From Planctomycetota bacterium (GTDB lineage Bacteria; Planctomycetota; Planctomycetia; Pirellulales; Lacipirellulaceae), in the NCBI GenBank assembly GCA_039190745.1, contig JBCCXZ010000063.1, forward strand, positions 1-19,362: a DNA stretch of 19,362 nucleotides, given 5' to 3'. The notes under the pieces were generated by a model. That model worked only from the letters and a program-made list of their open reading frames with translations, was not told the DNA's origin and ran no database searches. The translations under genes and the position numbers were made by a program. Shown here piece after piece: positions 7,617 to 19,362 of this stretch; positions within the stretch are counted from its first letter, which is position 1; each line of letters starts with the position of its first letter.

Positions 7617-7730
7617 GAACGCCTCCAAGAATCGCAACCCCATCGGCCCCTCTTGGGCCTAACTGTGAGCAATGCCTGCAGGGTGAGTTAGTGGATTCCC
7701 TCGCTCTTGCATTCTTATTGTGGGCTTCAC

Positions 7731-7777
7731 TTGGCTGAACCGTTTGCCGCGTCGTACAATTACAACAACACAAGGAG
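7731..7777 (+). promoter_or_regulatory. Putative sigma70-type promoter and RBS for the GspE-like gene
   Basis: TTGGCT (7731-7736), 18-nt spacer, TACAAT (7755-7760); A/C-rich leader; AAGGAG (7772-7777) 5 nt before ATG 7783. Confidence 0.55.
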
Positions 7778-7782
7778 CCGCC

Positions 7783-9261
7783 ATGAGCAGCGACCCCGCC
7801 GCCACGCGGCTCGATCAGTGGTACTTCGAAATCGGAGACGGCAACACCTACGGGCCGTACCCGATGGCGAAGCTCCAGAAATGGGCCGCGGCCGGCAACC
7901 TGATGCCGACCCACCGCGTCCGTCGTGCAGACTCGTCCGAGTGGACGATCGCCGCCTACGTTCCCGGGCTCGAACTGACCACCGCCGCAACGGACGACCC
8001 CGCCGACGCCGAGGCCCCGGAGGAGGAGCAGAAGGGCGGCTCGCTCGGCGGCCTTATCCGCGGCAAGGGCCGCAAGCCGAAGGCCCCCGCCGCCGAACCG
8101 CCGGACATCGTCGCGATGTGCCAGAAGTTCCTCGACACGGCCTACGAACGGGCCGCGTCCGATCTGCACATCGACCCCGAAGAAAACATCGTCCTTGTGC
8201 AGATCCGCGTCGACGGCGAACTCGAGCCGCTCCAGAAACTGCCCAAGGCGCTGCACGGCCCCGTGATCGGCCGCATGAAGGTCCTCGCCGGCATGGACAT
8301 CGCCGAGAAACGTCTTCCGCAAGACGGCAGCTTCGTCGCCGAACTCGGCGAGAAGAAACAACGCATCCACCTCCGTGCCGCGTGCCTGCCCACGACGCAC
8401 GGCGAACGGATGACGCTCCGCTTGCTCGCGGTGGAAACGGCCCAGCTCACGCTCAACCGCCTCGGCATGAGCGACGTTGCGTTGACCACATTCAGCGAGT
8501 TCGCGGCTCAGAAACAGGGCATGATTATGCTCTCGGGGCCCACCGGCAGCGGCAAGAGCACCACGCTCTACGCGGCGCTCCGCCACCGGCTCGCCCAGCA
8601 ACCCGGTCGCATCATCACGGTCGAAGACCCTGTGGAGTTCGACATTGTCGGCGTCGCCCAGGCGGAGGTCGACTCCGCCGACAAGGTGACCTTCACCTCA
8701 GCGCTAAGGAATATCCTCCGCAGCGACCCCGACGTGATCATGATCGGCGAGATCCGTGACTACGACTCGGCAGACATCGCCATCAAGGCCTCCCTCACCG
8801 GGCACCTCGTGTTCAGCTCGTTGCACACGAACTCCGCCGCGGGCGTTGTGACGCGATTGATCGACATGGGGCTGGAGCGGTATCAGGTAGCCGCAACGCT
8901 AAGGCTGAGCATCGCGCAGCGGCTTATCCGGCGCCTCTGCCAACGCTGTCGCCGCCCGCGGGAGCTGACACAACTCGAGGCCGAAACCATCGGCCGAGCC
9001 GACTTGGCGGGCGCCCCGGTCTACGAGCCTGGTTCGTGCGAGAAATGCAAAGAACGCGGATTCCGCGGCCGGATCGGCGTCTTCGAGATGCTTCCGATCG
9101 ACGACGAGCTCTCGCGCAAGATCGTCACCGGCTGCGACGAGGGTGAGATCAATCGCTACGCCCGCGAGCAGAACTGGCCCTCGCTCCGCCAGGACGCGGT
9201 GCAGAAGCTGCTCGTCGGGGCTACCAGCTATAGCGAGTTTATGACCGCGGCGGTTTGGTAG
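7783..9261 (+). CDS. GspE/PulE/PilB-family secretion/pilus assembly ATPase with N-terminal GYF_2 (DUF4339)-like domain
   Basis: Start moved to ATG 7783 because of the RBS. 'ASDLHIDP', 'RVDGEL', 'MDIAEKRLPQDG', Walker A GPTGSGKSTT (8536), 'TVEDPVE', 'LRSDPDVIMIGEIRD', His box 'TGHLVFSSLHTN', Zn motif CQRC…CEKC. N-terminus 'WYFEIGDGNTYGPYPMAKLQKWAAAGNLMPTHRVRRADSSEW' fits GYF_2. Confidence 0.92.
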   Translation: MSSDPAATRLDQWYFEIGDGNTYGPYPMAKLQKWAAAGNLMPTHRVRRADSSEWTIAAYVPGLELTTAATDDPADAEAPEEEQKGGSLGGLIRGKGRKPKAPAAEPPDIVAMCQKFLDTAYERAASDLHIDPEENIVLVQIRVDGELEPLQKLPKALHGPVIGRMKVLAGMDIAEKRLPQDGSFVAELGEKKQRIHLRAACLPTTHGERMTLRLLAVETAQLTLNRLGMSDVALTTFSEFAAQKQGMIMLSGPTGSGKSTTLYAALRHRLAQQPGRIITVEDPVEFDIVGVAQAEVDSADKVTFTSALRNILRSDPDVIMIGEIRDYDSADIAIKASLTGHLVFSSLHTNSAAGVVTRLIDMGLERYQVAATLRLSIAQRLIRRLCQRCRRPRELTQLEAETIGRADLAGAPVYEPGSCEKCKERGFRGRIGVFEMLPIDDELSRKIVTGCDEGEINRYAREQNWPSLRQDAVQKLLVGATSYSEFMTAAVW

Positions 9262-11923: not shown

Positions 11924-13999
11924 TCAGCCGCGGAACAGCCACCACAGGATGAGCCCCAGCAGCGGCGGGACTAACGCTGCAGGCAGGATCGTCGCCAGCG
12001 ACTGGTTCAGCGTCCGCTCCAGCCACCGCCGCTTGCTCTGGAAGCCTTGCATCTCCGCGGCAACCGCCTTCCACTTCCCGCACATCTCCTCGAACTGCTT
12101 CAGTTCCTTGCGCAGGCCGTACTTGATTGATTTGACCATCGACTCGATGTGACCCGCGCCCATGAGGACCTTGCGGGCCTGCGAGATTTTGTAGCGGTGG
12201 GTCGCGGCCTCGGTCGCTACCTCCAACTCTTCGGGCGTCACCCCGTGATCGGGCCGGAACACGAAGTCCCGCTCCAATTGCTCGCGCCACTGCAGCAGCT
12301 CCATCGAAAGGCCCGTGTCGACCGCCGGGATGCCGTACAGCTTCATTTTCTCTACATCGTAAGCACTCTCCACACCGAACGACTCGAGCATCGCCGCCAC
12401 CGAAGTGCTCATGCCCGGCATCTGGTCGACCAGGTCCCGCACGGAGTGGTTCCGCAGGACCTCGGTTTTCTGCGCGTCGCTGTGCTCGACGAGAGCCCGC
12501 GTTAGGGCCTTCCCCTCGGCGCGGTAGTTGTCCAGCTGGGTTTGCAACTCTTCGGTTTGCTTCTGGAACGTCATCTCGCGGCGGCGGTGACGCTTGGCGA
12601 TCTGCTGCGTCTTGCCGTAGAGCCTCGACTGCCCGTCCGTCAGCCACTTCTGAAAGGCCGCTAGTTGCTTGCGGATGTTCTTCGCTTCGCTGCCGAAAGT
12701 AAACACCGCGCCGCCGCCTAGGCAAAGTAGTGTGCCAACGATGAGCGCGTACCCCGTTACGACGCCGGCCAAACACAGCGCAGCCCCAACCACCATCGCC
12801 CCGCCAATCAGGTCGAGGAGCGTCAGGTCCTGCTGGACGGTAAACTTCATCCCTGGCATCTTTGGCAGCTCGAGTTCGCCCGGCGCAAGGTCGGGGAACA
12901 CTGCTACGCGGACTCCCTTGACACGCTTATTCAGCTCGGCCAGCCGGTCTTTGGTGACTGCCGAGGCGCCCGTGTCTGCCACAAAGAACGCCGGCCCGCC
13001 CTGGTCTTCGATCCGGCACCAAGGGCACTCTTGCAAGCCGCTGTAGTAGTAGTGCATCGAGTCGTAGCTGCATTGCTTCAGCTGTTTCATCAGTGCTTCG
13101 AGCTGCTCGGCCCATTCGATGGCCCGTGGCCGCTCGGGCGCCCCTGCCCCGCCGGCGCGGAAGGCCCGTTCGAACAGGTTCCCGAGCCCCGGCGGCAGGT
13201 CTTCCAGCAGCAGCGAGGCTGGCGGCGGGTCGATCTGCGTCGCCGCCCGGTCTCGTGAGAACGCGAACCGCTGCTCGCCGATCGCCTTCTCGATCGTCAT
13301 GTCGCCCGGCCCCCGATAGCGGCCCGCGAACGGGTGCCGGCTCACGAACAGCAGGTGGAAAATCAGCACCGCCAGGCCGAAGCCGTCATGGTCGACGGTG
13401 CGCGTCACGTCACGCAGCTGCTGCGACTGCAGCTCCGGCGGCGTGAAGTGCGCCGTCCCCACCGGACAGTGGTAAGTGTTGCCGTCCACACGCATCTGGA
13501 ACGAGTCGCAGTCGATCATCCGCACGCACATGTCCGCGTCGACCATCAGGTTCCCCTGATTCACGTCGCCGATGACCACGCCCGTACGGTGTACCGTGTG
13601 GAACGCGGCGGCCGTGTTCCGCGCCGCGAGCACCAGGTGGTGCCAACCTGTCCCGGGGAAGTGCCGCCGGCGGTTGGTCGTGCCGTACAGCTCGTGCAGG
13701 TGGAACGAGCCGTTGACCTTGGGCATGAGGATGCCGCACGGCTGGTTGCCGGCGGTGAACAGCAGCGACCGCGGCCAAGCCGAGATCGCCGCCAACCCCT
13801 TCGAATAGAGTGACACCATCGCCTGGAGCTTCGCGACCTGGTCGCGGTCCAGCGGGCGTTTGTGGTACAGCTTGACGACCAGCGTATCGTCGCCGGCGAC
13901 GTCGTAGACCTCGCCCTCGCCCCCCTTGCCGATGAGGTCGCCGAGCCGGATATGACGACCTTCCGAGTCAACCAGCTCGGTTAGCTGCTGCTGTTTCAC
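11924..13999 (-). CDS. yegI: YegI-like membrane Ser/Thr protein kinase of the TerY-P triad (kinase, Cys/His Zn knuckle, TM hairpin, coiled coil, degenerate HhH, C-terminal TM)
   Basis: GKGGEGEVY Gly loop; VVKLY lysine; 'IGDVNQGN' catalytic loop; 'IDCDSFQ' in place of DFG; 'FTPPELQ'; 'RHPFAG'; 'CSYDSMHYY…CPWC' (~13016-13073); hydrophobic hairpin ~12693-12820. GTG start overlaps the phosphatase 3' end by 32 nt. Confidence 0.9.
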   Translation of the reverse strand: MKQQQLTELVDSEGRHIRLGDLIGKGGEGEVYDVAGDDTLVVKLYHKRPLDRDQVAKLQAMVSLYSKGLAAISAWPRSLLFTAGNQPCGILMPKVNGSFHLHELYGTTNRRRHFPGTGWHHLVLAARNTAAAFHTVHRTGVVIGDVNQGNLMVDADMCVRMIDCDSFQMRVDGNTYHCPVGTAHFTPPELQSQQLRDVTRTVDHDGFGLAVLIFHLLFVSRHPFAGRYRGPGDMTIEKAIGEQRFAFSRDRAATQIDPPPASLLLEDLPPGLGNLFERAFRAGGAGAPERPRAIEWAEQLEALMKQLKQCSYDSMHYYYSGLQECPWCRIEDQGGPAFFVADTGASAVTKDRLAELNKRVKGVRVAVFPDLAPGELELPKMPGMKFTVQQDLTLLDLIGGAMVVGAALCLAGVVTGYALIVGTLLCLGGGAVFTFGSEAKNIRKQLAAFQKWLTDGQSRLYGKTQQIAKRHRRREMTFQKQTEELQTQLDNYRAEGKALTRALVEHSDAQKTEVLRNHSVRDLVDQMPGMSTSVAAMLESFGVESAYDVEKMKLYGIPAVDTGLSMELLQWREQLERDFVFRPDHGVTPEELEVATEAATHRYKISQARKVLMGAGHIESMVKSIKYGLRKELKQFEEMCGKWKAVAAEMQGFQSKRRWLERTLNQSLATILPAALVPPLLGLILWWLFRG

Positions 14000-14759
14000 G
14001 GAGCCTTGATGCCAGGATGAGGGTCTTGTCGTCGTCCGACCGCGTGCTCACCGACTCGGACGCTAGAAACCCGCGGAGATCGCCCGCGAGCCCTTCTAGG
14101 TCGTCGGTGTTGTGCAGGCTCCGGAACAGCGGTGCGCAGAACGGATGGAACGCGGTATGGGTGTCAAACTCCAGGGCCAACCTCTCCAGCCCGTCGGTCA
14201 GCATCGCTACTTCTGTGAAGCCGCTGTCGACCGCCTGGAACTCGACAAACTCTTCAAATCCTTTGCCGGTAATGAAGTTCGTCGAATTGGCGTACTCGCC
14301 CGACTGGGGCCAGAACACCACGCCGAAAACCCCGTGGTTACCTAGGATAATTGCCCCGTCGCCGATCTGGAAAAAGAACGACCGCTGGGGCCCCGCGATC
14401 ACGCCGACCAGCGTGGTGGCGTACTCCCGGACGCCGCACTCCCGGGCCTCGGCGTCGGCGGCGATCTTCTCCCGCGCCGCCCCGAGCCAGCCCAGCACGT
14501 CTTGCCTCTTCAGGTCGACGAACGCGCCGTGCTCTTCGTGGAAAGCCGTCGCGCCCTCAACCACTGCGTGGCAAGCAAGCGACGACCCCGTATCGCTGTA
14601 CTTGGCGCTACCCGCCCCGTCGGCGACGCACGCCACCAGGAAAGTGCGCTCCCCATCGCCGAGGACCCGGGCCCGGCTCGAGTCCTGGCACGGCGTCCCC
14701 TCCGCCTCGTGTGACGGGCCTCGGCGGCTCTCGGCTATGAATCGCCAGGGGGAGGGCAA
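13968..14759 (-). CDS. yegK: PP2C-family Ser/Thr phosphatase (YegK/PphC-like; TerY-P triad)
   Basis: 'WRFIAESRRGPSH…PCQD', 'CVADGAGSA', 'QIGDG', 'GEYANSTNFIT', 'LTDGLE', 'DDDKTL'; TTG start with GGAG ~7 nt upstream. Confidence 0.92.
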   Translation of the reverse strand: MPSPWRFIAESRRGPSHEAEGTPCQDSSRARVLGDGERTFLVACVADGAGSAKYSDTGSSLACHAVVEGATAFHEEHGAFVDLKRQDVLGWLGAAREKIAADAEARECGVREYATTLVGVIAGPQRSFFFQIGDGAIILGNHGVFGVVFWPQSGEYANSTNFITGKGFEEFVEFQAVDSGFTEVAMLTDGLERLALEFDTHTAFHPFCAPLFRSLHNTDDLEGLAGDLRGFLASESVSTRSDDDKTLILASRLRETAAANRAG

Positions 14760-14826
14760 GTCGGGTCTCCGAAGAGGCGGACGCTGCCGGCGCCCGGTTG
14801 GATTCAGAATCGTTCTTGTTCCGGGT

Positions 14827-15510
14827 TCAGATCTGTGCCCAACCCGTGGGCCCGCTGGTGGGGTCGCTCAGTTGCACTTCCTCGCCGGGGCTCGACCGCG
14901 AGACCGCCTGCTGCGAGTTCGACAGCCAGCTAAACATTTCTGCGAACTTCGTACCCTGCAGCCACAGGGGTTTGCGGACGCAGATTTCTTCGAGCACGTC
15001 CATGTTGGCGCCCTCCACGCCCACGGCGAAGAAGCAGAAAGCCTTTTTCTCCTCGCCCCGCTGCACCCGGCCGACGACCGGCTTCCAGTGGTCGTTTGGT
15101 TCACCGTCAGTGATCAAGAACGCCCAGGGCCGGTAGTAGGCGATGCCGTGCTCGCGGTAGCTCGCCTTCCGCTCCTCAACCATGTCGAGCGCCACCGTGA
15201 TCGCCTCGCCCATCGGCGTGCCGCCAATGACTTGCAGCTTTGGCGGGTCGAAGTCGGGAGCGGTGGTGAACTCCGCCAATCGGGTCACCCGCCCGCCGAA
15301 GGTCACGATCGCCACCTCGACGCGCTTCGCCGCGAGAGGGTCGTCGACCAACTCCTGCTTGTAGGTCTGCAGGCCCCGGTTCAGCTCGTCGATTCGCGGA
15401 CCCTGCATTGAGGTCGACGTATCGAGGATTAGCACGCAGGGCACGCGCGGCTCGGGGTTCTCAGCGAATTCGACGCCGCTGAAGGCGTTCTGGGACGAGA
15501 GCTGATCCAT
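14827..15510 (-). CDS. terY: TerY/YegL-like von Willebrand factor A domain protein
   Basis: Start set at ATG 15510 (MDQLSSQNAFSGVEFAENPEPRVPC), matching YegL-like N-termini; MIDAS 'LDTSTSM', 'GGTPMG', 'YYRPWAFLITDGEP', 'FSWLSNSQQAVSRSSPG'. Confidence 0.92.
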   Translation of the reverse strand: MDQLSSQNAFSGVEFAENPEPRVPCVLILDTSTSMQGPRIDELNRGLQTYKQELVDDPLAAKRVEVAIVTFGGRVTRLAEFTTAPDFDPPKLQVIGGTPMGEAITVALDMVEERKASYREHGIAYYRPWAFLITDGEPNDHWKPVVGRVQRGEEKKAFCFFAVGVEGANMDVLEEICVRKPLWLQGTKFAEMFSWLSNSQQAVSRSSPGEEVQLSDPTSGPTGWAQI

Positions 15511-15622
15511 GGCGGTTGGCAGGCGGTCGGGCGGGTCTAGGGGGCCGACAACGCAAAGCAAGACCGCACTGGCAGCAGACCAAGCCAGGAAAAACACACG
15601 CTAGCCACAACCGCGAGCCTTG

Positions 15623-16030
15623 CTACTCACAACCCCTTGTACCACCCGCACCGAGCGGTTGCAACGCACCAAAATCGGGCAGCAGCGTCTGATAAATAGC
15701 CCCGATGAGCCGCGGCAAGCCAAAGACGGCCAACCGGAAGAACACCGCCAGCAGCACCGCAGCCAGGAAAACTATCGCCATCGTCCCACCCGTCCAGCAC
15801 AGAGCCATCAGCCGGGGGGACGCCCCGATCGCCGAGAAAACCTCCGGCAGCAGCACGAAGAAAACAGTCAGCGTTGCCGAAAGGCCCTCACCCGCCGCGG
15901 CTGCAACGCCCCAGTCAATCCGGCCTTGATCCGCGTGGATAGAGCCTGTCTCAAGGGCCCCTTGTCCCGTAGGCCAGGCCGAGTTTGGGCAAGCGTCATC
16001 ACGGTAGTTCACACTCTGGCTCGAGTCCAT
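15623..16030 (-). CDS. Hypothetical 135-aa membrane protein upstream of terY
   Basis: ATG 16030 has a perfect AGGAGG Shine-Dalgarno 8 nt upstream; hydrophobic segments 'LSATLTVFFVLLPEVFSAIG' and 'MAIVFLAAVLLAVFFRLAVFGL'; fills the gap without overlapping other genes. Confidence 0.65.
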   Translation of the reverse strand: MDSSQSVNYRDDACPNSAWPTGQGALETGSIHADQGRIDWGVAAAAGEGLSATLTVFFVLLPEVFSAIGASPRLMALCWTGGTMAIVFLAAVLLAVFFRLAVFGLPRLIGAIYQTLLPDFGALQPLGAGGTRGCE

Positions 16031-16107: not shown

Positions 16108-16176
16108 AGCAGATTGCACAATTCGTCGGGACAAAGCCCGCATGAACCGATCTGTGAACAGAAGGACGGTTCCAAT

Positions 16177-16182
16177 TAGAAT
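16177..16182 (+). promoter_or_regulatory. Putative -10 box (TAGAAT) 6 nt before the SLC4 gene ATG, suggesting a leaderless transcript
   Basis: TAGAAT-TTCTCT-ATG with no Shine-Dalgarno sequence within normal distance of ATG 16189. Confidence 0.45.
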
Positions 16183-16188
16183 TTCTCT

Positions 16189-18252
16189 ATGCGTGTTCTC
16201 CGCGAAGCGATCGCCGAAGGCAGCTGCCTCCTGAACCTCGACGCGAGGACCATGCCGGAGGTGATCCAGGCGGGCTGCGAGTTCCTCGTACAAACCGGCC
16301 GTTTGCCCGAGAAGCAGCTCGAGCCCGTCGTCGAAGGCCTGCTCGAGCGAGAGCGCGTGGCGCCCACGGCAATCGGCCATGCGTGTGCGGTGCCCCACCA
16401 CTACGGCGAGGGCATCGCCGAGCCCATCTTGGTTTTCATCCGGCTGAGGCACCCCGCCAACTTCGGCGCCCTCGACCGGATCGCCACTCGGTTCGTCTTC
16501 CTGCTGATCGGCCCCAGCGACCGCGCCGGCGAGCATCTCGATACACTCGCTGCGATCGCGCGTCTGATGTCCGACGACGAGTTCCACGTCGCCGCCGCAA
16601 GCGCCCAAACGCAGCAGGCGTTGCTCGAAGCGCTCAACGAACACAACGACCGGGCCGCCTACGCGCAGACGACCAAACCGCGGGAGGTAACCGACGGGCT
16701 CCTCCCTGCAAGACGCCCCTTCGAGGGCGTCCGCCGCGACCTCCGACGCCGGCTGCCGCACTACGCAGACGACTTCCGTTCGGGTTTGGAGCGTAAGTGC
16801 ATCGCGTCGATCTTGTTCATGTTCTTCGCGTGCCTTGCGCCCGCGGTCACGTTCGGCGGCATCATGGGCCTCGCCACCGACGGCCAGATCGGCGCCGTCG
16901 AAATGCTGGTCGCCTCTGCCGCCTGCGGTGTCGTCTACGCACTGACCGCAGGCCAGCCCCTGATCATCCTCGGCGGAATCGGCCCGCTGCTCATCTTCAC
17001 CATCATCCTCTACGAACTCTGCGGCGACCTCGGCCTCGGCGACCAGTTCCTCTCGGTCTACGCCTGGGTCGGCCTCTGGACCGGACTCTTCACGGTTCTG
17101 CTGGCGGTGACCAACGCCAGCAACCTCATGCGCTACTTCACTCGCTTTACGGACGAGATCTTCTCCGTGCTGATGTCGCTCATCTTCATCTATGAGGCGG
17201 TCCGCGCCGTCGTCCGCACCTTCCGCGAGAGTTTCAGCGACCCCGCCGCCGCCCACGACTCGGCTTTCCTCGCTCTGACGCTTGCGCTCGGCACGTTCTA
17301 CATCGCCACGACGCTCTCACGCTTCCGCCGCAGCCACTTCCTTGCGCCCTGGATGCGTGAAGTGCTCTCCGACTTCGGGCCCACCATCGCCCTGTTCAGC
17401 ATGGCGGTTGTGGCGTATTGGCTCCGCGATGAGATCGTCCTGAAAACTCTTGAGGTCGGCGCCGGGTTCGGCACCACCTCGGGTAGGCCCTGGTTGGTCG
17501 ACCTCGGGGCCGTCTCGGTCGGAACACGCCTCGCCGCCGCGGGGCCCGCGGCCATCGCGACGGTCCTGCTCTTCCTCTCGCAGAACATCACCGCCCGGCT
17601 GGTCAACAGCCCGCAGAACAAGCTCAAGAAAGGCGAGTCGTACCACCTCGACCTTACCGTCGTCGGCGTGCTCGTGGCGGCCTGCTCACTGTTCGGCTTC
17701 CCTTGGCTCGTCGCGGCGACGGTCCGGTCGCTGGCCCACGTGCGGGCGCTGGCCGACGTGGAAGAAGTCGTCTCCTCCGGCGGGGCCCCCCGCGAGCGTA
17801 TTCTCCAAGTCAACGAAAACCGCCTCACCGCCCTCGTGATCCACATCCTGCTCGGCGCGACTCTCTTCTTCCTCCCCCTCTTGGAATACGTCCCCATGGC
17901 AACGCTCTACGGCATGTTCCTGTACATGGGCGTCGTCTCTCTGCAGGGCACCCAATTCATCGAGCGCCTCAGCCTCTGGTTGATGGACTCCACGCTCTAC
18001 CCCGCCACGCACTACATCCGCCAAGTGCCCATCCGTACCATCCACCTGTTCACGCTCCTCCAGTTCGGGTGCCTCGCGGTGCTTTGCGCGGTCAACGTCA
18101 GCCCCTGGCAGACGCTCCGGATTATGTTCCCGGTCTTGATCGCCATGCTCGTGATCGTCCGCTGGATGGCCGGCGGGTTCTTCGACAAGTCCCACCTGTC
18201 GATCCTCGACGCCGACGAAGAGCCCTCCGCCGAGCAGTCGCACTGGCTGTAG
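16189..18252 (+). CDS. PTS EIIA (type 2)-like domain fused to SLC4 / HCO3- cotransporter (Band 3/AE/NBC/BOR-like) anion transporter
   Basis: N-terminus 'LLERERVAPTAIGHACAVPH' is the EIIA phospho-His signature. Membrane domain 'RRDLRRRLPHYADDF', 'FFACLAPAVTFGG', 'GQPLIILGGIGPLLIF', 'YFTRFTDEIFSVLMSLIFIYEA', 'SDFG', 'KLKKGESYHLDL', 'PWLVAATVRSLAH', 'VNENRLT', 'LYGMFLYMGVVSL', 'IHLFTLLQ' follows SLC4 motifs in order. Confidence 0.92.
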   Translation: MRVLREAIAEGSCLLNLDARTMPEVIQAGCEFLVQTGRLPEKQLEPVVEGLLERERVAPTAIGHACAVPHHYGEGIAEPILVFIRLRHPANFGALDRIATRFVFLLIGPSDRAGEHLDTLAAIARLMSDDEFHVAAASAQTQQALLEALNEHNDRAAYAQTTKPREVTDGLLPARRPFEGVRRDLRRRLPHYADDFRSGLERKCIASILFMFFACLAPAVTFGGIMGLATDGQIGAVEMLVASAACGVVYALTAGQPLIILGGIGPLLIFTIILYELCGDLGLGDQFLSVYAWVGLWTGLFTVLLAVTNASNLMRYFTRFTDEIFSVLMSLIFIYEAVRAVVRTFRESFSDPAAAHDSAFLALTLALGTFYIATTLSRFRRSHFLAPWMREVLSDFGPTIALFSMAVVAYWLRDEIVLKTLEVGAGFGTTSGRPWLVDLGAVSVGTRLAAAGPAAIATVLLFLSQNITARLVNSPQNKLKKGESYHLDLTVVGVLVAACSLFGFPWLVAATVRSLAHVRALADVEEVVSSGGAPRERILQVNENRLTALVIHILLGATLFFLPLLEYVPMATLYGMFLYMGVVSLQGTQFIERLSLWLMDSTLYPATHYIRQVPIRTIHLFTLLQFGCLAVLCAVNVSPWQTLRIMFPVLIAMLVIVRWMAGGFFDKSHLSILDADEEPSAEQSHWL

Positions 18253-18362: not shown

Positions 18363-19362
18363 ATGCCAGCCATATCCAACAAAGTCCCCCGGGGCGTCCT
18401 GCTTCTGACAACCGTGCTCGCTTGCTGGTGCATCCAGAAAGCAGCCCCGGCCGCCGGCCCGCCGAGGATCATCTTCATACTTGCCGACGATCTCGGCTAC
18501 GGCGACCTCGGCTGCTACGGTCAGACCAACTTCCAGACGCCCCACATCGACCGAATGGCGGCCGAGGGCCTCCGCTTCACCCAGCACTACGCCGGCTCGA
18601 CCGTCTGCGCTCCCTCACGCGCGTGCTTGCTTACCGGCCAGCACACCGGCCACGTCTGGCAACGCGCCAACGGCAAGATCCACTTCCGCTCCGACCCGCG
18701 GGACCTCACGATCGCTACGATGCTCAAGCGCGCCGGCTACCGCACCGCGATGATCGGCAAGTCCGGCGTCGCCTGCAACGACAGCGACGGCAAGCGGCCG
18801 AACAAGAAAGGCTTCGACCATTTCTTCGGCTACGTGAGCCACACCGCTGCTCACCGCTACTACCCAACCTCGCTGTGGCGGAACGGCAAGCTCGTCCGCT
18901 ACACAGACAACCAAGGCAAAGCGGGCAAGACTTACTCGGGCGACCTCTTCCGGGAAGACGCACTGGCATTCATCGATGCCAATCGGCGTGAGAAATTCTT
19001 TCTTTTCCTCGCGCTGCAGCAACCGCACGCCGACCTTGCCGTGCCGGACCTCTACAGAAAACGGTTCGCCGGCAAGTTCCAAGAAACACCCCACCCAGGC
19101 GGACACTATCGAGCCGAGCCTGAGCCCAAAGCCACCTACGCGGGCATGATCTCCCACCTCGATGAAACGGTCGGGGCCGTTCTCCACAAGCTCCGCGAAC
19201 TCGGCATCGAGCGAGAGACACTTGTTCTCTTTAGCAGCGACAACGGCCCCATGTCCGAAGGGGGCTGGGACCAAGATTTCTTCAACTCCAGCGGGCCCTT
19301 ACGGGGCGGCAAGCGAGACCTTTACGAGGGCGGCGTACGCGTGCCGCTGATCGCCCGATGGC
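18363..19362 (+). CDS. Cys-type (formylglycine-dependent, S1) sulfatase, 3'-truncated by the window
   Basis: Absent from the ORF track because no stop falls in the window; translated by hand: MPAISNKVPRGVLLLTTVLACWCIQKAAPAAGPPRIIFILADDLGYGDLGCYG…CAPSRACLLTG (Cys codon 18606)…GYRTAMIGKSG…GFDHFFG…SSDNG…GGKRDLYEGGVRVP; signal-peptide-like N-terminus. Confidence 0.95.
   Translation, partial: MPAISNKVPRGVLLLTTVLACWCIQKAAPAAGPPRIIFILADDLGYGDLGCYGQTNFQTPHIDRMAAEGLRFTQHYAGSTVCAPSRACLLTGQHTGHVWQRANGKIHFRSDPRDLTIATMLKRAGYRTAMIGKSGVACNDSDGKRPNKKGFDHFFGYVSHTAAHRYYPTSLWRNGKLVRYTDNQGKAGKTYSGDLFREDALAFIDANRREKFFLFLALQQPHADLAVPDLYRKRFAGKFQETPHPGGHYRAEPEPKATYAGMISHLDETVGAVLHKLRELGIERETLVLFSSDNGPMSEGGWDQDFFNSSGPLRGGKRDLYEGGVRVPLIARW

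Follow-up and report, generated by a model that had tools for sequence, protein, structure and literature searches.

An SLC4-type transporter of planctomycetes with an intact EIIA histidine site in its cytoplasmic domain

The stretch of DNA analysed here, 19,362 nucleotides of contig JBCCXZ010000063.1 from a planctomycete, probably marine, of the Lacipirellulaceae (the window in what follows), contains a gene in which an EIIA domain of the phosphoenolpyruvate (PEP)-dependent phosphotransferase system (PTS) is joined, in one open reading frame (ORF), to the membrane domain of an SLC4 anion transporter. The best explanation, which we rate at somewhat better than even, is a bacterial SLC4 carrier of the elevator type in which a PTS EIIA domain that has remained intact serves as the cytoplasmic domain. 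Sequence comparisons indicate that this domain and the N-terminal domain of eukaryotic SLC4 proteins very probably share their ancestry in a single EIIA-SLC4 fusion.

A 2015 review reports that the N-domain of AE1 and NBCe1 has an EIIA-like fold, describes the SLC4-like transporters of bacteria, fungi and plants as lacking an N-domain, and states that no isolated gene homologous to that domain can be identified (PMC4664831). In the relevant sections of a 2026 review, the role of the cytoplasmic domain is called unclear and SLC4 is placed in animals, plants and fungi (PMC13263692). The SLC4-like protein of Nitrococcus, named as a bacterial precedent in an earlier reading of this stretch made from the sequence alone, is borne out by the literature only as an uncharacterised protein (PMC8738779). 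A diatom SLC4 carries HCO3- (PMC5853954). Searches of the open-access literature turned up no report of an EIIA-SLC4 fusion in bacteria; a listing in TCDB or in older surveys of PTS fusions is possible.

Domain architecture and family assignment

The fusion ORF (P0001; 16189..18252, forward strand, stop codon included) encodes 687 amino acids without an internal stop. It comprises an N-terminal EIIA domain of the Ntr/Fru-Mtl type, which is also the core of the Band 3 cytoplasmic-domain fold (residues 1-158, 16189..16662); a short linker between N-domain and membrane domain (residues 159-175, 16663..16713), which is coil in the structure model with a predicted local distance difference test score (pLDDT) of 70-80; and an SLC4 membrane domain (about residues 176-675, 16714..18213), recognized by Pfam, by matches to PDB sequences and in the model. 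All lie on the forward strand. The sequence-only reading had described this join of EIIA and SLC4 domains in one ORF, and it was borne out. The three Pfam families which that reading had put forward all score above cut-off on the full protein: HCO3_cotransp with 561 bits (cut-off 27), PTS_EIIA_2 with 83.9 bits over residues 13-151 (cut-off 27) and Band_3_cyto with 62.8 bits (cut-off 34.3, best stretch 78-154). The 900-position TIGR00834 'ae' subfamily model gave 526.6 bits, below its cut-off of 599.45.

Among PDB sequences the best matches come from the human proteins NDCBE, NBCn1 and AE2, with E-values between 6e-115 and 2e-112 (AE2 1.6e-112), followed by weaker ones to BOR1 (~6e-55) and IIA-Ntr (4e-11); by sequence score the membrane domain is nearer to human AE2 and NDCBE than to BOR1. 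A membrane domain of the SLC26/SulP or UraA type, an outcome that would have spoken against SLC4, was seen neither in Foldseek nor in Pfam, where the 687-aa protein matched none of these families at E<=0.1. A BLAST comparison with the SulP of a related locus gave a best E of 0.005 over 98 aa. The full-length AlphaFold2 model (pLDDT 91.5, from a 114-sequence alignment) matches AE2 over ~726 columns, and every Foldseek row listed is an SLC4; against the AE2 entry 8jni, which holds the transmembrane domain only, the TM-score (target) is 0.94 with a root-mean-square deviation (rmsd) of 1.9. Full-length rmsd values are 6-15, and the relative placement of the two domains in the model is therefore unreliable.

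The three-domain architecture recurs in 120 of 120 homologues among the matches listed, as well as in genome contigs, which excludes an assembly artefact as the source of the fusion. Domain content and fold place the protein in SLC4, although its site S1 is atypical, and the fold and motif of the N-domain identify an EIIA. Database pipelines record the Pfam architecture and mostly label the homologues 'PTS sugar transporter subunit IIA'. For the fusion family the label of a sugar PTS subunit is wrong, the membrane domain being SLC4 and not EIIC.

The EIIA-type domain and its histidine site

Searched alone, the N-domain scores 88.5 bits with PTS_EIIA_2 (cut-off 27) and 69.5 bits with Band_3_cyto (cut-off 34.3). 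The free PtsN of the same genome, used as a control, reaches 119 bits with PTS_EIIA_2 and has no Band_3_cyto match listed at E<=10. With the PtsN equivalog model TIGR01419 the N-domain falls below the cut-off (59.3 against 138.7 bits), a threshold that discriminates poorly in this phylum because the free PtsN also falls short of it, at 105.5 bits. Modelled alone (pLDDT 94), the domain superposes on IIA-Ntr 2a0j with a VIA Z score of 19.8 (rmsd 2.0, 146 residues aligned), on AE2 8jnj with 16.2 (rmsd 2.7, 154 aligned) and on Band 3 1hyn with 15.4 (rmsd 2.8, 155 aligned, chain range 107-322). Four IIA-Ntr structures lie at Z 18.9-19.8, and the cytoplasmic domains of AE2, BTR1, NDCBE and Band 3 at 16.2-14 over up to 155 of the 160 N-domain residues, so that the predicted structure matches both the EIIA-Ntr and the AE2 fold. 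By Band_3_cyto and by core fold, the domain is of the Band 3 cytoplasmic type.

In alignment with E. coli IIA-Ntr (1a6j), Arg54 of the Arg54-Glu55 pair (16348..16353, +) corresponds to Arg57, and His70 (16396..16398, +), the predicted phospho-acceptor, to His73, the phosphorylation site of E. coli EIIA-Ntr (PMC2215328). The second conserved EIIA histidine, His116 (16534..16536, +), aligns with IIA-Ntr His120; human SLC4 proteins have Tyr or a similar residue there. The codon that the sequence-only reading assigned to His70 does lie inside the motif it gave, and the other stretches it quoted are present as written.

Conservation of the site was examined in two sets of homologues: the best 120 of 1570 matches from 8000 candidates scored (59-93% identity), and the best 120 of 939 matches to the Asp-type subfamily described below (49-59% identity). 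Pro69, His70 and His116 are invariant in both sets (120/120 each); Arg54 is found in 114/120 and 116/120, and Glu55 in 120/120 and 115/120, respectively. Loss of His70 among orthologues, which had been named as a way to refute the reading, was therefore not seen in any of these 240 top homologues. The Pro-His pair is also kept in 55 of the 56 ORFs from genome loci that have an N-domain, a count in which the query appears twice and the exception is N-terminally short. All seven residues of the EIIA site (Arg, T/S-x-x-G, Pro, the phospho-His and the second His included) are present in the query. The full set occurs in 36/40 fused domains, as compared with 28/30 free PtsN-type domains.

Among 186 candidates for a free-standing N-domain (86-277 aa), 20 matched. 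These look like fragments, mostly on short contigs and some with pieces of the membrane domain, and do not establish that the domain exists on its own. A complex prediction for HPr with the N-domain scored 0.02, was run without controls and is counted neither for nor against binding.

The membrane domain and its substrate site

The central acid of transmembrane helix 8 (TM8), which is Glu in AE1-3 and BTR1 and Asp in the Na+-coupled members and BOR1, is absent from the query, a point that the sequence-only reading had overlooked. The alignment register puts Ser464 (17578..17580, +) at the place of AE2 E1011, NBCn1 D930 and AE1 E681, and the best 120 near homologues carry Ser (115), Ala (3) or Thr (2) at this position. 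Ile264 in TM3 (16978..16980, +), at the place of AE2 S768 and NBCn1 T668 in site S1 (alignments and Table 2 of PMC13263692), is Ile in 119/120 of the same homologues, and the two residues are replaced together throughout the subclade of the query. The commoner bacterial subfamily has Asp in TM8 (120/120) and Thr in TM3 (118/120), and both site types, Ser/Thr and Asp, coexist in genomes G496 and G658. Arg513 in TM10 (17725..17727, +), the equivalent of AE2 R1060 and AE1 R730, the anion-binding Arg of Na+-independent exchangers, is present in 240/240 proteins across both subfamilies. A TM10 Arg marks the Na+-independent exchangers and the TM8 Asp is the Na+ anchor (PMC13263692). Ser464 is a derived change within SLC4 and not a sign of another family, and the Ser464 subclade would move anions independently of Na+ and H+ through Arg513.

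A cytoplasmic beta-hairpin follows TM10 (residues 522-541, 17752..17811, +; strands 522-528 and 534-541 in the model). It would be the equivalent of loop IL5 of AE2, which anchors the cytoplasmic domain in the inward-facing state of that protein (PMC13263692).

Relationship to the cytoplasmic domains of eukaryotic SLC4 proteins

The possible evolutionary connection with the N-terminal domain of eukaryotic SLC4 proteins that the sequence-only reading had raised is supported by family assignment, structure, profiles and trees. Identity to animal-type proteins is ~35-42%. Representatives at 50% identity (the best 150 of 771 matches at 1e-30) form a gradient from intact EIIA through degenerate bacterial and protist forms to the split animal form; animal-, alga- and protist-like rows without a species name were labelled from architecture and clustering. 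The degenerate N-domain is contiguous in Palpitomonas bilix, Sphaerothecum destruens, Barthelona sp., Sphaeroforma arctica and Vermistella antarctica. Animal-type N-domains, the human NBCe1 chain among them, match in two pieces (positions ~4-57 and 74-155) separated by ~50-240 extra residues. The query domain is contiguous and starts at residue 1, with neither the animal-type core insertion nor a long N-terminal extension. One protein, P0141 (1147 aa), appears from its sequence to carry an extra, more decayed EIIA-like repeat ahead of the main one.

A profile of 56 bacterial domains searched against structures finds PtsN at 6e-32 and next NBCe1, AE2, NBCn1, NDCBE and Band 3 (1e-20 to 5e-16), before IIA-Mtl (2e-11). 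Profiles of fused and PtsN domains, matched in diversity (44% vs 45% mean identity), were compared on 121 N-termini, made up of 111 of the 150 representatives (those with >120 residues before the membrane domain) and 10 loci. With 13 intact bacterial domains set aside, 92 of the remainder scored above 10 bits, and in all 92 of these N-termini, which lack the His motif and are bacterial, protist and animal, the fused profile beats the PtsN profile. Taken separately, both halves of the N-domain favour the fused profile (animal-type 22/22, protist-type 11/11, degenerate bacterial 12/12), which argues against a chimera patched with PtsN.

An N-domain tree of 61 rows and 148 columns, with 15 free PtsN-type domains as outgroup, gathers the 46 fused domains, including the degenerate ones of bacteria, protists and animals, on a single branch (99/98*). 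The His-bearing rows are basal in this branch, and the eukaryotic and degenerate rows are nested (94/89); the rows were aligned to the fused profile, the animal rows are about half filled, and the outgroup comes from two phyla only. On these sequences an intact EIIA site is the parsimonious ancestral state.

The membrane domains were placed in an unrooted tree of 66 hand-picked rows and 487 columns, built with a quick mixture model. One side of it holds the bacteria together with N-domain-less proteins of algae and plants (Marchantia, Cyanidioschyzon, Cladosiphon), which join the bacterial side with a Shimodaira-Hasegawa-like approximate likelihood-ratio (SH-aLRT) support of 89-92; on the other side are the N-domain-bearing eukaryotes, BTR/BOR-like rows and five further rows (SH-aLRT 92). 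A FastTree of membrane domains was built from 156 of 169 rows, coverage being too low in the other 13. The N-domain-less algal and liverwort SLC4s P0135, P0139 and P0158 group, with moderate support, with degenerate and N-domain-less bacterial proteins and not with animal or BOR proteins, hinting at a separate bacterial origin.

Distribution and PTS components

The EIIA-SLC4 fusion family is widespread but patchy. PF00955 scores above cut-off in 13/301 Planctomycetota genomes, P0001 has matches in 40/401 Planctomycetia genomes, and the transporter is found in 15/201 genomes of the phylum of G683, a group that appears to be a phylum other than Planctomycetota. The nearest named locus belongs to a Lacipirellulaceae metagenome-assembled genome (93% protein identity), and cultured carriers include Stieleria varia, Rubripirellula amarantea and Roseiconus nitratireducens. 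A further degenerate cluster is named Saprospiraceae/Chitinophagales, and bacterial versions without the N-domain exist, including a cluster named Pseudomonadota. Frameshifted or N-terminally short copies, either assembly errors or decay, were seen at L089:7363-8995, L145 and L087:6997 (G665, G745 and G574).

The genome under study encodes one EI, one HPr and one free PtsN, and has an hpf-ptsN-ptsH-ptsI cluster on contig C32. Searches of the genome, which is 95% complete, for the EIIC family PF02378 and the EIIB family PF02302, the only EIIB/EIIC families covered, found neither, and from its gene content the PTS looks regulatory-only. HPr was detected in 44/44 planctomycete genomes that carry the transporter, carriers being the only genomes counted. 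Among nine other long EIIA-bearing ORFs picked from the same genome sets, five are CPA antiporters, one a CLC protein and one an APC permease (L186-L190 for the CPA antiporters, L193:2208-4499 for a CLC-CBS channel and L195 for an APC-Usp permease). An EIIA-transporter fusion in G757, a genome without HPr and EI, lacks the Pro-His motif. Free PtsN governs the YcgO antiporter through its state of phosphorylation (PMC11808508), a precedent for PTS control of a transporter.

Gene neighbourhoods

Neighbourhoods were compared at 59 planctomycete-set loci, which reduce to 56 distinct loci on removal of three duplicates, and no conserved operon was found across them. Bicarbonate-related neighbours (SulP, carbonic anhydrase (CA) or carboxylase) occur at 4/56 distinct loci. 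On one strand, L014 has beta-CA, SulP, HPF, SLC4, Usp, a fusion of EIIA with diadenylate cyclase (DAC), and pyruvate carboxylase; L015, also on one strand, has SulP, PEP carboxylase and SLC4; CA and SulP at L080, and a SulP-CA fusion at L085, are convergent with SLC4. A beta-CA gene lies near SLC4 at 3/56 distinct loci vs ~0.26 expected for ~813 kb of loci, an expectation drawn from 88 matches in 43 carrier genomes; loci from related genomes are not independent. In G636 and G684 the beta-CA at the locus is the only beta-CA match of the genome. No bicarbonate-related partner was seen by tblastn in 15 loci of the second phylum. The EIIA-DAC fusion of L014 (9091-10443) lies two genes downstream of the SLC4 fusion, and a Usp gene stands directly 3' of SLC4 in four loci (L019, L070, L072 and L014); at L019 (175-4559) two SLC4 genes flank a Usp gene.

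In the window itself a sulfatase gene (18363-19362, +; Pfam) directly follows the transporter gene and is cut by the end of the window. The close relative L005 keeps the order SLC4-sulfatase, followed there by a molybdopterin oxidoreductase. Sulfatases were found at seven of the 59 SLC4-fusion loci (six by tblastn and one by Pfam), and proximity to a sulfatase was ruled out as support, being about chance level given 16 matches in the 3.9-Mb genome. Upstream of the transporter gene and divergent from it, a cluster at 11924-15597 (-) consists of three consecutive Pfam-recognized genes, for a VWA protein, a PP2C protein and a kinase-like protein whose C-terminus bears a membrane anchor, which we take to resemble the TerY-PP2C-kinase triad; PP2C and VWA genes stand at the matching place in L005. 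Between this cluster and the transporter, and divergent from the latter, is a 135-aa hydrophobic ORF (15623-16030, -) with no Pfam or NCBIfam match, and an ORF of like size occupies its place in L005. Farther upstream lies a gene for a type II secretion system/pilus ATPase with an N-terminal GYF_2 domain (7720-9261, +; Pfam). Genes of the window also encode PSCyt/PSD and DUF1501 domains (Pfam), as fits a planctomycete source. A consensus scan gave a weak sigma-70-like promoter match (16155..16182, +) that ends 6 nt before the ATG, from which a transcript would possibly be leaderless. A similar -10 box is kept in L005; such a box occurs in 2/31 loci only, and a leaderless promoter was ruled out as a general feature of SLC4-fusion loci.

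Proposed function and alternatives

In the explanation favoured here, an SLC4 carrier with an intact EIIA domain, anions would be moved by the elevator mechanism established for the SLC4 family. PEP, by way of EI and the single HPr of the genome, would probably phosphorylate His70 on the EIIA domain tethered by the short linker. We give an even chance to the next step, in which the phosphorylation state of His70 would alter the contact of the N-domain with the membrane domain (one candidate site is the post-TM10 hairpin, by analogy with the AE2 domain) and would shift transport up or down with carbon status. Such PTS gating is suggested by the full seven-residue EIIA site and by the presence of genes for HPr and EI. 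For the fusion family as a whole the substrate is more probably bicarbonate than anything else, and its transport could plausibly feed PEP or pyruvate carboxylase. PTS phosphorylation tracks the PEP:pyruvate balance, so control of the bicarbonate supply to these carboxylases would fit.

A number of observations weigh against this account. Eleven of the loci in the second phylum carry an N-domain. G683 alone keeps the Pro-His pair, and it nests among planctomycete rows; the other 10 domains keep only 1-3 of the seven site residues. Five of those 10 genomes have EI and HPr, and in the other five, at least 80% complete, neither was found. The histidine itself survives in 5/10 of the degenerate domains, including 4/5 of those from genomes in which HPr and EI were not found, which points to some PTS-independent constraint on it; the degenerate domain of L147 is an example that keeps the His and no other site residue. 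Since a lone His persists without HPr and EI, the case for phosphorylation rests on the whole seven-residue motif and not on His70 alone. A simple tracking of His loss with HPr/EI loss was ruled out, for the motif decays with or without a PTS and the His often stays. As HPr seems widespread in these planctomycetes, its presence in all 44 carriers discriminates little. AE1 can transport without its cytoplasmic domain, the role of which is unsettled; the cytoplasmic domains of AE2 and BTR1 have been proposed to hold the inward-facing state, on evidence judged inconclusive (PMC13263692). As to bicarbonate, linked neighbours occur at only the four loci named, none in this window; L014 and L080 share one CA-SulP module; and no beta-CA was found in this genome. 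Loss of the TM8 acid cripples Cl-/HCO3- exchange by AE1 (PMC13263692; PMC2217076), which weakens the designation 'bicarbonate exchanger' for the Ser464 subclade.

These points give some weight, short of making it likely, to the view that the EIIA fold of the N-domain serves regulation or structure, for instance as a dimer contact or a sensor of pH or ligand, that His70 is kept for a reason unrelated to the PTS and that no PTS control exists. The surviving His in genomes without detectable HPr and EI fits this view, as do the persistence of the domain after decay of the motif in bacteria, protists and animals and the proposal that the AE2 cytoplasmic domain is a pH sensor (PMC13263692). However, the full R-E-T/S-G-P-H-H set is held about as strictly in planctomycete fused domains as in free PtsN, whereas bacterial lineages that keep only the fold retain one to three of the seven residues. 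It is considerably less probable that His70 is phosphorylated but the domain serves as a membrane-tethered, PtsN-like signal or phosphate sink, with transport unaffected or with the transporter signalling to the PTS. PtsN does bind many partners, among them TrkA, KdpD, YcgO and pyruvate dehydrogenase, in a phosphorylation-dependent way (PMC13104625), and AE1 transports without its cytoplasmic domain (PMC13263692); yet the recurrent fusion of EIIA to unrelated transporters (CPA, CLC and APC in seven of the nine ORFs noted above) suggests control in cis, and the bacterial versions lacking the N-domain fit a removable regulator.

Independently of gating, the Ser464 subclade could be an electrogenic carrier of divalent anions, such as sulfate released by sulfatases, which we regard as unlikely; HCO3-/Cl- remains the better candidate for this subclade, though only tentatively, at rather less than even. 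Neutralization of the acid in mouse AE1 (E699Q) yields an electrogenic SO4/Cl exchanger (PMC2217076), Ser464 and Ile264 change together across the subclade, a sulfatase gene is directly downstream both here and in L005, and the joint presence of Ser/Thr-type and Asp-type copies in G496 and G658 suggests different jobs. The sulfatase association is at chance level, however, the copies beside carboxylases at L014 and L015 also lack the acid (they have Thr), and the query has Ser where AE1 E699Q has Gln.

Shared ancestry leaves the direction of descent to be considered. The nesting of the eukaryotes has unstarred support, on long branches and with an unsettled bootstrap; a topology in which the His-bearing domains form their own clade was not rejected by an approximately unbiased (AU) test (p 0.18); and the membrane-domain tree is unrooted and rests on the quick mixture model only. 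All three weigh against a fixed direction from bacteria to eukaryotes, and an origin from within planctomycetes goes beyond what the trees support. A late gene transfer from a eukaryote to planctomycetes, with the EIIA site regained by recombination with a bacterial ptsN, would accord with the patchy distribution (13/301 and 40/401 genomes), with the identity to animal-type proteins and with the lack of a root. It is nevertheless very improbable: eukaryotic N-domains resemble each half of the domain more closely than they do PtsN, with no PtsN-derived patch seen, and in the membrane-domain trees the bacterial sequences form several deep lineages that are not nested in animal or protist clades. 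If instead the fusion with an intact EIIA came first, the phospho-site would have decayed later in some bacteria and in protists, and animals would have gained the ~50-240-residue insertion just before the strand that carried the His.

Comparison with known systems and significance

With animal AE1, AE2 and AE3 (8gv9, 8jnj, 1hyn) the query shares the fold and sequence of the membrane domain, the TM10 Arg, and an N-terminal cytoplasmic domain of like core fold (Z 15-16) with a linker. It differs in that its N-domain consists of the 158-residue EIIA core alone, lacking the insertion and the long tail and retaining the His site intact; in TM8 it has Ser rather than Glu, and its host is bacterial. 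The Na+-coupled members (NDCBE 9mix, NBCn1 9ovr, NBCe1 6caa) give the best sequence scores (~6e-115) and align with both halves of the N-domain, but their Na+-binding residues, Asp in TM8 and Thr in TM3, are missing from the query, which has a TM10 Arg not found in them. EIIA-Ntr/PtsN (1a6j, 2a0j, 3urr) has in common with the query domain the fold (Z 19.4-19.8), the equivalents of Arg57, His73 and His120, and a genomic setting in which sugar EIIB/EIIC (PF02302, PF02378) were not found; the query domain is a distinct subfamily fused in cis to an anion carrier, and its phosphorylation is only predicted. The 'primitive' SLC4-like proteins (Nitrococcus mobilis, Chara CaSLOT, diatom SLC4, BOR1) share the membrane domain but are described as having no cytoplasmic domain (PMC4664831, PMC8738779), unlike the query. 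The CPA antiporter-EIIA, CLC-CBS-EIIA and APC-Usp-EIIA proteins likewise join EIIA to an ion or solute carrier, with the EIIA domain at the C-terminus instead of the N-terminus.

We put forward, as a conjecture that we hold at less than even strength, that Band 3 and all animal bicarbonate transporters carry, as their cytoplasmic domain, the relic of a bacterial PTS EIIA phosphorelay domain, of which planctomycetes would keep a working ancestral form; there, PEP-dependent phosphorylation of His70 would gate an SLC4 transporter and tie bicarbonate supply to anaplerotic carboxylation, and the N-domain-less SLC4s of algae and plants would have come separately from the bacterial side. The fusion family offers a bridge, at the level of sequence, from an intact EIIA to the split animal N-domain. 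It is directly relevant to a stated open question, namely where the SLC4 cytoplasmic domain came from and what it is for, and suggests a source for that domain in human bicarbonate transporters. It also supplies a small (687-aa), full-length bacterial SLC4 with a putative built-in switch for work on structure and transport, and its members differ naturally at the substrate site (Arg+Asp vs Arg+Ser).

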